This document shows positions 9,013 to 12,290 of a stretch of 64,000 nt of DNA, piece after piece. Every line of letters starts with the position of its first letter. Position 1 is the stretch's first letter. The notes beneath the pieces are model-generated. The model was not told where the DNA came from. It did no database searches and saw nothing but the letters and a program-made list of their open reading frames with translations. A program made the position numbers and the translations under genes. Source of the stretch: an uncultured archaeon (GTDB lineage Archaea; Thermoproteota; EX4484-205; JAAOZP01); NCBI GenBank assembly GCA_938045545.1, contig CALIBN010000012.1, positions 78,368 to 142,367 on the forward strand, read 5' to 3'.

Positions 9013-11958
9013 CTATCCTTTAACCACGCCTAGTGGCACTAGCCTAGCAACCTTAAGTGAAATCCCCGCTCTATCTGTGACCTCCACAACCTCGTCAGGA
9101 TCCTTATACGCACCCGGTGCTTCTTCGGCAACAAGGTTCATGTCTGCAACCCTAAGGTAGACACCCCTTTCCTCAAGCATCCCCCTTATCTGCCTGCTCG
9201 TAAACCTCCGCATCGCCTCATGCCTGCTCAGCATCCTTCCGGCACCATGCGCAGTCGAGCCGAAGCTTGCCTCCATCGCAGTCTCAGTCCCAACGAGAAC
9301 CCAGCTTGCTGAGCCCATTGAACCGGGTATTAGAACCGGTTGGCCATACTCTCTATATTTTGAGGGGATATGACTGCTTCCGGGCGGGAAAGATCTAGTC
9401 GCGCCCTTCCTGTGGACGACAACCCTTTTCTTCTCCCCGTTAACCCTGTGGTCCTCAATCTTAGCGATGTTGTGTGCAACATCATACAGAATATTCAAGC
9501 CGAACTCGGAAGCATCCTTTTTGAAAACCTTCGCGAAGCTCTCCCTGACCCAGTGGGTGATAACCTGCCTGTTAAGGAAAGCATAGTTTACGGCGCAAGC
9601 CATAGCAGCAAAGTAGTCCCTGGCCTCGTGGCTCTCAACAGGAACGGCTGCTAGCTCCCTATCCGGCAACCAGATGTTATGCTTCCTGCTAGCCACCTCC
9701 ATTGTTTTAAGATAATCTGAGCAAACCTGATGGCCGTATCCTCGACTTCCCGTATGTATTAATACCACGATCTGACCGGTTCTCTCGATTCCGAATCCTC
9801 TGGCCACTTCCCCGTCGATAATTCTCTCCACGTAATCTATTTCGAGAAAATGGTTTCCGCTTCCCAGGCTGCCCAACTGGGGAAGGCCACGCCTCTTAGC
9901 GGTGACGCTGACCCTGCTCGGGTCCGCTCCCCTTAGGCAGCCGTTCTCCTCGATGAATTCCGCGTCCTCCTTCCAGCCGTATCCCCGCTTAATAGCCCAA
10001 TCGACGCCTTCTCTGACAGCACTATCCAGCTCGTCGAAGCTCATTCTAAGCTTGCCTTCAGAGCCAAGGCCTGAAGGTACATTATGGAATATCTCGTCGA
10101 GAAGCTCTCTCAGAACAGGCTTAACGTTGTCAACATTCAGATTCGTCAGCAGGAGGCGTACGCCACAGTTTGAAACCACGAAGCCGTTGGCTATGAAATT
10201 ATGAACGTCTTCTTTAACAGTAAAATCGTAAACATCTTCGTTGAACAGTAGTTCCTCCTTCTTAACAACCCTATCCCAGACGACGCCTGTTTTGCCGAGA
10301 CCCTTCGTCACTGACTCTAGAAAATCCTCGAAGGAGGGGAGGTTTAACGGTGCTCTCGGAAGACTTTTCCTGCCCTCATATAGAGATCTTTCAATAAACC
10401 TTCTGTTCACGTATTCAGACTCCAGAGCTTCATATATAGTTACATTAGACGAGCCTCCGTTCTTCATAGCGATAGCTACCTGCTGTACGTTTTCTCTAGC
10501 TTTTATCACGCGCATCTTCAGCTTCAAGTAGTGGATGGCGACGTTTGCAAGATGCTTCTTCTCCCTGTTATACTCAAACCCTACTTTACTCCATAGTTTG
10601 ACCAAATTTTTCGGAGAACCGGATATTATTAGGCGGAGCCTGGTTGAAACACCTTGTTTCCCTTTAACCGCTTCAGGCTCCATGGTTATTTTCTTAACTT
10701 TAACTCCGAATTCTCTTAAAAGGAGGGCGATTTGCTTAAGGAGCTTTACGCCGGCTTCCTCACGACCCTTTTTCTTGTTAAGGCACAGGACAGGCATATA
10801 GAAGTTAAATGGATTTGCTGTGACTGTTTTTGGCTTAGAAAGCTCTGCTCCGAAGAACGCGGCGAGGAAAAGCCTCTTCTGCCAGAGAGGAAGCCGGAAT
10901 AGCCATTCAGGCAACGCATAGTTCTGCGAGGTCTTGTTTCCCAAGGGAACACCCATTGCAGCCATAAGCGAGATAAGGCTCCTTGAACAAACCTTAATGC
11001 TGTGCTCAATCGTTGTAAAATCATACTTGCCGTATTTAGTTTCAACCCTGTGTCTTCTAGCTCTTGAATAGATTTTAGAAGGTTTGAAGCCTACGCGTAA
11101 AATATCACTCCCTATATCCTCTAAGTCCTCAGGCCCGGCGAAGAACCAAGCTGCATGACTCTTCTCGGTATACAGGAGCACGCCGTCACCGAGTATAAAG
11201 CCCATTAGCTTAAGCAGATATGGAAACTTACTGTTGTCGCTCCTCAATGGGAGAAGCCCTCTTTTCCTAAGTTCAGAGATCACTAGCTCTTTTCGGCCGG
11301 GAACCTTAAGACGCTTTATATCTTCCTCAGACACTATAGTTATGGGCTCAGCACTTTCATACAATACTCCTTCAAAAGGGTAGACAGCCACATCCTCACA
11401 TCCTATCTCGCTCAACGGCACCATCCCCCGACGTGTGAGGAAAGGATGGTCCTCCGTAGCTATTATCTCCCTGCCCGATTCTGTTTCAACCCTGAAAACC
11501 CTCCGGTTTGGACGAATCTTAATGAAACGCATTATCTCAGTAGGTTTGACACCCTTCTCAAGACTAACGCACGTAACCCGTTCACTGTTCCAACTCTTTA
11601 AGAACCCCTTAATGGGAAGCCTATAGCCATGTTCGTGAAGAATCAGGCTGTCCCCGGATAGGCAGTTAATGTCGTAACCCACTCCACCGGGCGACACAAC
11701 TCCATCTTTAACGTCGAAAGCACCGACTCCTCCTATTGGGAAACCGTATCCTTCGTGTCCGTCGGGGAGAATGATTGAACTCTTATATATTCCTGGAAGC
11801 GTTGCCACGTTTAAACCTTGTTCAACAGTCTTATCCTGGGTCATTTTCTGCAAGAGTGTTTCGTTCGCGAAAATTTTAAGCGGCACCCGCATCCCCTTTT
11901 TAGCTCCCACATCTACTCGATACTCTACGTCTGAAACCTTTTCAAACCTGTAGCTCAT
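9013..11958 (-). CDS. rtcB: RtcB 3'-phosphate/5'-OH RNA (tRNA-splicing) ligase precursor with intein; about 482 aa after splicing
   Basis: PDGHEGYGFPIGGV, GYDIN/CGVR, GSGNHF, HTGSRG, HRKGAT, STAHGAGR, AYKD. Confidence 0.97.
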   Translation of the reverse strand: MSYRFEKVSDVEYRVDVGAKKGMRVPLKIFANETLLQKMTQDKTVEQGLNVATLPGIYKSSIILPDGHEGYGFPIGGVGAFDVKDGVVSPGGVGYDINCLSGDSLILHEHGYRLPIKGFLKSWNSERVTCVSLEKGVKPTEIMRFIKIRPNRRVFRVETESGREIIATEDHPFLTRRGMVPLSEIGCEDVAVYPFEGVLYESAEPITIVSEEDIKRLKVPGRKELVISELRKRGLLPLRSDNSKFPYLLKLMGFILGDGVLLYTEKSHAAWFFAGPEDLEDIGSDILRVGFKPSKIYSRARRHRVETKYGKYDFTTIEHSIKVCSRSLISLMAAMGVPLGNKTSQNYALPEWLFRLPLWQKRLFLAAFFGAELSKPKTVTANPFNFYMPVLCLNKKKGREEAGVKLLKQIALLLREFGVKVKKITMEPEAVKGKQGVSTRLRLIISGSPKNLVKLWSKVGFEYNREKKHLANVAIHYLKLKMRVIKARENVQQVAIAMKNGGSSNVTIYEALESEYVNRRFIERSLYEGRKSLPRAPLNLPSFEDFLESVTKGLGKTGVVWDRVVKKEELLFNEDVYDFTVKEDVHNFIANGFVVSNCGVRLLLTNLNVDNVKPVLRELLDEIFHNVPSGLGSEGKLRMSFDELDSAVREGVDWAIKRGYGWKEDAEFIEENGCLRGADPSRVSVTAKRRGLPQLGSLGSGNHFLEIDYVERIIDGEVARGFGIERTGQIVVLIHTGSRGYGHQVCSDYLKTMEVASRKHNIWLPDRELAAVPVESHEARDYFAAMACAVNYAFLNRQVITHWVRESFAKVFKKDASEFGLNILYDVAHNIAKIEDHRVNGEKKRVVVHRKGATRSFPPGSSHIPSKYREYGQPVLIPGSMGSASWVLVGTETAMEASFGSTAHGAGRMLSRHEAMRRFTSRQIRGMLEERGVYLRVADMNLVAEEAPGAYKDPDEVVEVTDRAGISLKVARLVPLGVVKG
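10168..11664 (-). mobile_element. LAGLIDADG intein in RtcB (499 aa)
   Basis: Starts CLSGD after GYDIN, ATEDHPF block B, LMGFILGDG and FLAAFFGAE motifs, ends VYDFTV..FVVSN before catalytic Cys of CGVR. Confidence 0.95.
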
Positions 11959-11963
11959 TTCTC

Positions 11964-12005
11964 GGGATCACCCTTTAGGGTTTCCAGATTTCCCCGGGTG
12001 ACCCC
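11964..12005 (-). promoter_or_regulatory. BHB/BHL-type hairpin in rtcB 5' UTR that sequesters the GGUGA Shine-Dalgarno
   Basis: Minus-strand RNA GGGGUCACCC GGGG AAA UCUGGAAA CCCU AAA GGGUGAUCCC GAGAA AUG; promoter gaaaac-tttaataa at 12063-12050 puts it inside the transcript. Confidence 0.75.
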
Positions 12006-12290
12006 CAGGGACTCAACCTTAAAACTATGGTCTTCTTCTGCTTCTGGGATTATTAAAGTTTTCTACCAAGTCTTGCTGTAGGCTTCCTTGGCCTTTGGAA
12101 TTCTTAATCTTTAGGTTGAGTTGTGAAAGATAGAAGTGCAGGAGAGTAGGAAACACCGGTCGTTGGGGCAAGATATATTTTAAGCCTTTTGGCATTTCTA
12201 GATTGCGAGCAGTTCAAACGAAATAAAAGGGTGATTAAGTTTGAAAGACTTCAACTTTAATAGTAGCCTAGGTGTTTCGTAACCGTAAGC

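Follow-up and report, generated by a model that had tools for sequence, protein, structure and literature searches.

The gene for the tRNA ligase RtcB in an uncultured archaeon of the Thermoproteota is preceded by a leader with two mutually exclusive folds, one of which locks the ribosome-binding site (RBS) in a helix. The gene lies in a 64,000-nucleotide (nt) stretch of DNA (contig CALIBN010000012.1, assembly GCA_938045545.1), which we call the window. It is near certain, in our judgement, that this leader structure is real and regulatory. The structure, its conservation, the alternative fold and the likeness to the splice motifs of the genome's own pre-tRNAs are established, as is the presence of a suitable splicing endonuclease (EndA) gene. 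Our preferred reading, that the leader is a conserved cis-regulatory RNA with two exclusive folds that is cut by EndA and resealed by RtcB, is put forward tentatively and with rather less than even confidence.

The hairpin over the ribosome-binding site

All coordinates are window positions, and both the element and rtcB lie on the minus strand. The hairpin that holds the RBS (state B, 11964-12005, as folded by RNAfold) is composed of a lower helix of 10 base pairs (bp), a 3-nt bulge, a 4-bp upper (central) helix and an 11-nt loop. Along the transcript, the 5' arm of the lower helix (11996-12005, from sequence and fold) is followed by the four G of the upper helix 5' strand (11992-11995), the loop (11981-11991), the upper helix 3' strand (11977-11980), the AAA bulge on the 3' strand (11974-11976) and the 3' arm of the lower helix (11964-11973). 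This last arm contains the GGTGA core of the Shine-Dalgarno (SD) sequence, which ends 9 nt before the start codon (ATG, 11956-11958, from which the RtcB N-terminus aligns across 15 loci of the genus), and a spacer of 5 nt separates the hairpin from the ATG. We take the GGTGA core to be complementary to the 3' end of 16S rRNA, and the 5' arm of the lower helix resembles the anti-SD end of that rRNA because it pairs with the SD. The hairpin is both the minimum-energy fold and the centroid (RNAfold, 81 nt, -29.8 kcal/mol), and the fold and the opening energies place the SD base-paired inside a stable helix adjoining the start codon. The original prediction, made from the letters of the window, is borne out in describing a minus-strand leader with a 10-bp helix pairing the SD, a 4-bp GGGG/CCCT helix and an AAA bulge. 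It had also placed an AAA bulge on each strand, of which the 3' bulge is present, but the 5' site falls in a loop without an inner helix.

Searches for known elements returned no Rfam 15 family match in the window (the best match for the element itself, to an unrelated family, scored 15.7 bits against a threshold of 40 bits), and ARAGORN called no tRNA or tmRNA within the window. Three other identities were considered and set aside. A kink-turn (L7Ae site) would have tandem sheared G.A pairs, and there are none, the pairs flanking the bulge being Watson-Crick or G-U in all aligned leaders. A small upstream open reading frame (ORF) through the hairpin was dismissed by eye, as the differences in loop length are not multiples of three and the leaders have no start codon in common. 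A terminator or attenuator was rejected for want of a T-run 3' of the hairpin.

Leaders of relatives were gathered by way of the N-terminal part of the RtcB protein, and their upstream regions were read and scanned with a structural descriptor. Among 250 rtcB loci, some of them duplicates of one genome reached by different routes, the motif was found in 39, which represent 27 distinct leaders belonging to a Brockarchaeota-like genus that includes the source genome, one relative from the same order, and two groups of Nitrososphaeria; nine more descriptor matches were judged to be chance, having A/T-rich 6-bp arms and no SD. Within the genus the hairpin is present at all 15 rtcB loci found (the source genome and 14 of 16 others), at an identical distance to the start codon, and the two genomes without it, which are 70% and 82% complete, gave no rtcB match. 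All 210 pair cells of the genus are paired, with five one-sided changes and zero double changes, while the loop differs in sequence and length and the sequence farther upstream is poorly conserved. Outside the genus, the carriers are the same-order relative (locus L017, genome G022), eight distinct leaders around loci L229 and L071 (Nitrososphaeria), and three around L086 and L152.

It is in the distant members that the pairs change on both sides. The upper helix, GGGG/CCCT in the genus, becomes CGAG/CTCG, CAGG/CCTG or CGGG/CCTG, and paired substitutions occur in the lower helix as well. An alignment of 19 leaders from three groups (A7, model R2) comes with two caveats, as it was fitted to the structure and its members are themselves relatives. 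In it all 265 pair cells are paired, and 5 of the 15 pairs show changes on both sides; the covariation score was reached by none of 500 shuffles, and sliding the partner by one column brings pairing to 41-56%. Three further alignments were left out of these counts, one made with MAFFT that ignored structure (A4) and two that held antisense or chance matches (A3 and A6). Finer features were tallied by hand over the 27 leaders. The bulge measures 3 nt in every one (AAA in 20, AGA in 6, ATA in 1), with A as its first and third base throughout (A-N-A), and the loop of 8-14 nt always opens with two purines and is otherwise free. The hairpin ends 0-6 nt from the start codon across all members. Comparison with relatives was the check that the original prediction had pointed to, and covariation, bulge geometry and SD pairing are indeed kept across the 27 distinct leaders; of the bulge-helix-bulge spacing it described, the bulge holds in all 27 and, by maximal pairing, a helix of exactly 4 bp in 14.

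Conservation matters here because, judged as a single sequence, the fold is barely better than chance (z -2.06; 10 of 200 shuffles equal it), and it is conservation and covariation across leaders that raise the hairpin above it. The single-sequence statistics are what could be said for a functionless chance hairpin beside a GC-rich RBS. We find that explanation scarcely credible and already contradicted, since both helices, the bulge and the position are kept in 27 distinct leaders and compensatory changes are seen in both folds. A tree of the first 100 RtcB residues, although poorly resolved, moreover distributes the leader-bearing genes over at least three separate groups.

An exclusive upstream fold

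Beyond the earlier observation, we found a second conserved hairpin just upstream that is exclusive with the first (state A, 11991-12011), which is how the isolated 5' piece of the leader folds. In this fold 12011-12004 pairs with 11998-11991 around a 5-nt loop, at -16.2 kcal/mol. The partner strand comprises the end of the 5' arm, the four G (which here pair with 12007-12010) and the first A of the loop, and the hairpin therefore excludes the lower helix of state B. In 24 of the 27 leaders the 5' part adopts state A as its minimum-energy fold, with compensatory pair types at four positions. In 14 of 22 leaders it is also more favourable than 95% of the versions in which the upstream 25 nt were shuffled. 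The three leaders that lack it form the L086 group, in which the predicted promoter sits too close to leave space for it. Over the whole leader the two states lie close in energy, the median gap over 18 leaders being 3.4 kcal/mol (37 C) or 2.9 kcal/mol (65 C). A conserved, mutually exclusive upstream hairpin makes the leader bistable, and thus more than a plain hairpin.

Whether both folds are carried by the messenger depends on the promoter. The A/T-rich BRE/TATA-like element named in the original prediction is present at 12050-12063, and a similar element can be seen by eye at the 15 genus loci. From the usual archaeal distance between TATA box and start, transcription of rtcB would be expected to begin at about 12027, so that both hairpins would lie within the mRNA. 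In RNAfold the first bases of this predicted mRNA (about 12027-12012) pair with 11950-11935, which are rtcB codons 6-10, and so enclose the whole leader; the segment is a T-rich word of the TTAAGG type, kept in part of the genus, and may alternatively be a second TATA-like box.

Likeness to pre-tRNA splice motifs and a proposed switch

The same descriptor, applied to the ARAGORN-called tRNA genes of the source genome, finds tRNA-Ala(GGC), tRNA-Thr(TGT) and tRNA-Glu(TTC), in which the anticodon stem takes the place of the lower helix and is followed by a 4-bp helix, with 5' bulges CGA, TAA and CGA and 3' bulges AAT, AAA and ACA, respectively. If each strand is cut after the second base of its bulge, the ARAGORN introns of tRNA-Ala (19 nt) and tRNA-Glu (18 nt) are recovered. 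The leader of the source genome shares with the organism's own pre-tRNA introns a lower helix, a 4-bp helix and, 3' of it, a 3-nt bulge beginning with A; it differs in having a 10-bp lower helix in place of a 5-bp anticodon stem, and in lacking the tRNA body. The tRNA-Glu(TTC) motif has no inner helix and is a relaxed bulge-helix-loop (BHL), as is the rtcB leader. The claim that the leader has the geometry of an EndA substrate is supported in that its bulge and upper helix match the organism's own pre-tRNA-Ala and pre-tRNA-Glu motifs. Applied to the leader, the tRNA cut rule would place the 3' cut between 11975 and 11974, and the putative 5' cut would fall between 11990 and 11989. On geometry, this would excise a hypothetical 15-nt intron (11975-11989) that includes the 3' strand of the upper helix, and joining would leave a 7-nt loop, an arithmetic that the original prediction had right.

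Some further observations concern these tRNA genes. The hexamer ATCTGG is common to the tRNA-Glu(TTC) intron (contig C40, 9497-9589) and the leader loop (11989-11984), which is probably chance. ARAGORN calls only 26 tRNA genes in the genome, many with odd introns, as would be expected of a lineage in which non-canonical or multiple tRNA introns abound and escape standard finders. Within the first ~3 kb of contig C20, a false long 'intron' called by ARAGORN corresponds to the 3' end of a 16S rRNA and, after it, tRNA-Ile(GAT) and tRNA-Ala(TGC). The arrangement is that of a bacterial-type rRNA spacer, and C20 may be a contaminant contig in the archaeal assembly.

An endonuclease that could act on such a shape is encoded. 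The source genome has two single-domain EndA paralogs (PF01974) of 187 and 200 amino acids (aa), and two paralogs are also present in four of five other leader-bearing genomes searched. The 187-aa protein aligns over 180 residues with Aeropyrum pernix chain 3P1Z_B (E 5.4e-46) and is closest to the catalytic subunit of that organism's two-subunit enzyme, and the 200-aa paralog is more distant; by sequence, the pair fits a two-subunit enzyme. According to published work, non-canonical introns are cut only by the two-subunit and epsilon-2 types of EndA (PMC5829648), BHL substrates are competent (PMC12397907), and minimal bulge-helix-bulge (BHB) substrates are cleaved (PMC8707768). An enzyme of the two-subunit type would, on the first of these accounts, accept relaxed motifs, which agrees with the earlier expectation of an endonuclease tolerant of BHL forms.

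From these features we infer transcription through the element, cleavage, ligation and an effect on translation. In state B the RBS would be locked in the 10-bp helix, topped by a BHL that mimics the organism's own pre-tRNA splice motif, and in state A the upstream segment would capture the 5' strand of that structure. The two-subunit EndA would recognise state B and cut at the 3-nt bulge and in the loop, whereupon the released 5' piece would snap into its own hairpin (state A) and the 3' piece, with its SD open, could be translated. Plentiful RtcB would rejoin the pieces into a 10-bp stem with a 7-nt loop, in which the site is hidden again and which could no longer be cut. RtcB synthesis would then follow the amount of unligated EndA product, a negative feedback. 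The state A hairpin, which lies inside the would-be 5' exon, would help the two pieces to separate. In its most pointed form, which we regard as doubtful, the leader would be a decoy pre-tRNA, substrate and messenger in one, with a spring-loaded 5' piece, and RtcB, by resealing it, would shut off its own synthesis, so that the cell would gauge unligated splicing intermediates directly. In our estimate, the chance that EndA takes part is slightly below one half, and that of the full ligase-sensing loop lies between about a quarter and a third.

Energy modelling bears on which form of the leader could be translated. Opening the SD costs 8.2 kcal/mol at 37 C and 5.0 kcal/mol at 65 C in the intact leader, 9.5 and 5.0 kcal/mol in the spliced leader, and 4.0 and 1.0 kcal/mol in the 3' piece alone. 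In these models, then, the SD is opened by the cut, in the unligated form only, and splicing itself does not open the site. The original prediction had the SD freed when the cut stays open and hidden when it is sealed, and the calculations agree with it at the level of modelling (1.0 versus 5.0 kcal/mol at 65 C); we consider the mechanism it proposed plausible. At 65 C the co-folded pieces have -13.1 kcal/mol, compared with -8.1 for the separate, self-folded pieces, and by our own estimate the pieces would part at hot-spring temperature and sub-micromolar concentrations. State A becomes relatively less favourable once the leader is spliced.

The same numbers speak to an ordinary intron in the 5' untranslated region (UTR), spliced constitutively by EndA and RtcB, with the spliced mRNA being translated and no sensing of the ligase. 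The geometry would fit, and there is a precedent in HVO_1309 of Haloferax volcanii, for which it was suggested that efficient expression depends on splicing (PMC7714728). Joining, however, keeps the 10-bp helix and does not lower the cost of reaching the SD at either temperature, and the alternative hairpin loses relative stability after splicing, which leaves this explanation improbable.

Several observations weigh against cutting and resealing. By eye, about 20 of the 27 leaders allow a 3-bp mini-hairpin in state A whose 4-nt loop is made up of the bulge and one further nt, so that the length of the bulge could be explained without EndA. The upper helix, by maximal pairing, has 4 bp in 14 of the 27 leaders, a possible fifth pair in 11, and 3 bp with a G/A mismatch in 2, which loosens the defining 4-bp spacing; as RNAfold gives a fifth upper-helix pair to the genuine pre-tRNA-Ala too, a fifth pair in leaders need not disqualify them. 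The 5' site lies within the loop of 8-14 nt, and an inner helix is not conserved (at least 2 bp are possible in few leaders, by eye). A strict BHB with a second closed 3-nt bulge is thus absent, and only the relaxed BHL form can apply. Several genus members carry A/T-rich, TATA-like words ~10-20 nt before the alternative hairpin, from which transcription could start within it. The motif is also missing from most rtcB genes, including those of the same-order relatives G019, G023 and G017. Finally, a two-state design would equally suit the binding of a factor that does not cut, or a switch that needs no protein.

A protein-free switch would have the upstream hairpin form first during transcription, leaving the RBS briefly open, before the leader relaxes into the sequestering hairpin, the more stable of the two, or would have the two states shift with temperature; the bulge would then represent loop nucleotides of the mini-hairpin in the other state, and the likeness to tRNA introns would be coincidental. 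Conserved exclusive folds a few kcal/mol apart, an alternative pairing that covaries, an upper helix not fixed at 4 bp, and the mini-hairpin itself, which is seen in the state A folds of L001 and L229, are all what such a leader would show. We nevertheless regard it as possible but doubtful. The 3-nt A-N-A bulge is kept in the 7 leaders where the mini-hairpin falls short of 3 bp and cannot form (by eye), a hairpin of 3 bp would contribute next to no stability at the temperatures of hot springs, and neither the occurrence at rtcB only nor the conserved purines at the start of the loop would be explained.

A related alternative is an operator whose state B is bound, but not cut, by a protein, which would favour the sequestered state; the protein could be RtcB or a partner acting by substrate mimicry in autogenous repression, or EndA as a plain repressor. 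The 3-nt bulge, the short GC-rich helix, the purines at the loop start and the near-isoenergetic folds would all suit an operator, the link to a single gene is typical of autogenous control, and bacterial translational operators that mimic a tRNA arm are known (thrS). RtcB, on the other hand, is known for acting on RNA ends, not on intact bulged helices, and recognition of this shape is known for one protein only, the nuclease EndA, which is reported to cleave minimal BHB substrates (PMC8707768); we judge the operator unlikely. The cut-and-reseal model, for its part, gives every conserved feature a role and explains the placement at rtcB alone.

Leaders with comparable logic exist in bacteria, where alternative pairings and autogenous control are known from the thrS operator and from the rnc and rne leaders, RNase III and RNase E cutting the leaders of their own genes. 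As in these bacterial SD switches and autogenous operators, alternative pairings would free the RBS and the regulator would belong to the gene's own pathway; what would set the rtcB leader apart is its proposed sensor, a cut by a partner nuclease that is repaired by the encoded ligase. HAC1 and XBP1 (IRE1 with tRNA ligase) likewise use an endonuclease cut and RtcB-type ligation of an mRNA as a translational or regulatory switch, but they are eukaryotic, with the intron in the coding region or the 3' part, sense stress of the endoplasmic reticulum, and do not regulate the ligase gene. Closer in kind is the peptidase gene HVO_1309. Its 192-nt leader carries a 46-nt BHB intron, which was detected as circular RNA and which EndA cleaves in vitro; like the rtcB leader, it places a motif for the splicing endonuclease in the 5' UTR of an archaeal protein-coding gene, where expression may be affected (PMC7714728). 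The paper gives no account of that intron hiding the RBS or of a link to the splicing enzymes. In the rtcB leader, known here from sequence alone, the proposed intron is 15 nt long, the 5' site falls in a loop, the SD lies in the helix, and the gene encodes the ligase. The crenarchaeal cbf5 pre-mRNA intron also brings the tRNA splicing machinery to an archaeal mRNA, in lineages with two-subunit endonucleases; it interrupts the coding sequence and must be removed to obtain the protein, whereas the rtcB coding sequence is untouched (PMC2738675).

A full-text literature search, outside which most subscription journals fall, returned no description of the rtcB leader element or of autoregulation of an archaeal ligase, and nothing that addresses how archaea set the level of their tRNA ligase, an essential enzyme. 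This agrees with the earlier statement that such a feedback loop is undescribed, though a BHB intron in a 5' UTR is known from HVO_1309 (PMC7714728). Few cis-regulatory RNAs are known in archaea, and here a compact, phylogenetically supported two-state leader stands at one tRNA-splicing gene and has the shape of a substrate of that same pathway. Should cleavage by EndA be borne out, the leader would be the second splicing-endonuclease motif in an archaeal 5' UTR and the first with an evident regulatory logic, and if the whole loop were true, an RNA repair enzyme would be measuring the load placed on it. Without such cleavage, it would still represent a new candidate family of RNAs that control translation in thermophilic Thermoproteota. 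The element is short, at less than 90 nt, and so amenable to direct tests on synthetic RNA with recombinant enzymes.

Distribution, locus and gene

Each genome with the element has one strong copy, adjoining rtcB. Across 151 genomes of the phylum, model R3 gave strong matches only in the genus and in G022, and its 8 weak matches are not next to rtcB. Two other whole-genome models, R1 and R2, missed the known distant member G022 that R3 recovered, so that absence calls made with them are weak. The strict descriptor has only 10 matches in the 2-Mb source genome, none of them at other splicing genes, and both endA genes sit tightly behind other ORFs without a long leader. A regulon was dismissed on the single strong copy per genome and the silence of the descriptor at the other splicing genes. 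The many rtcB loci of the ammonia-oxidiser type lack the motif, and the leaders there are short.

Two observations were made on other leaders. At the Thermoproteota rtcB loci L020, L241, L242 and L248, a different leader is conserved in the final 20 nt before the start codon, with a G-rich word and a shared ACCGACAG-like word just before the ATG, then CCCC in the first codons. A small hairpin could enclose the start codon there, which suggests structured rtcB translation in other lineages. One of the weak R3 matches, L299 (G313, contig C14, 34667-34740, minus strand; E 0.36), forms a long hairpin in front of an amidohydrolase-like ORF, with an SD-like GGAGG word paired 8 nt ahead of the ORF start; it has no connection with rtcB and may be another SD-sequestering leader.

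The source genome (G000) is a 2.03-Mb assembly of 51 contigs with 48% G+C, and the window lies on its contig C12. The rtcB coding sequence (9013-11958, minus strand, 981 aa) is identified by Pfam PF01139 (RtcB, E 2.6e-164) and is interrupted by an intein, whose splicing domain (PF14890) spans residues 106-597. The intein comprises ~500 residues, from the Cys of a conserved DINC motif (~residue 99, ~11664) to ~residue 596, its borders being approximate and set by eye. Among the 15 loci of the genus, the rtcB open frame is 975-985 aa long in four (G000, G008, G016 and G006) and 485-506 aa long in the other 11, and long frames also occur in the distant rtcB genes of G042, G063, G034, G092 and G089.

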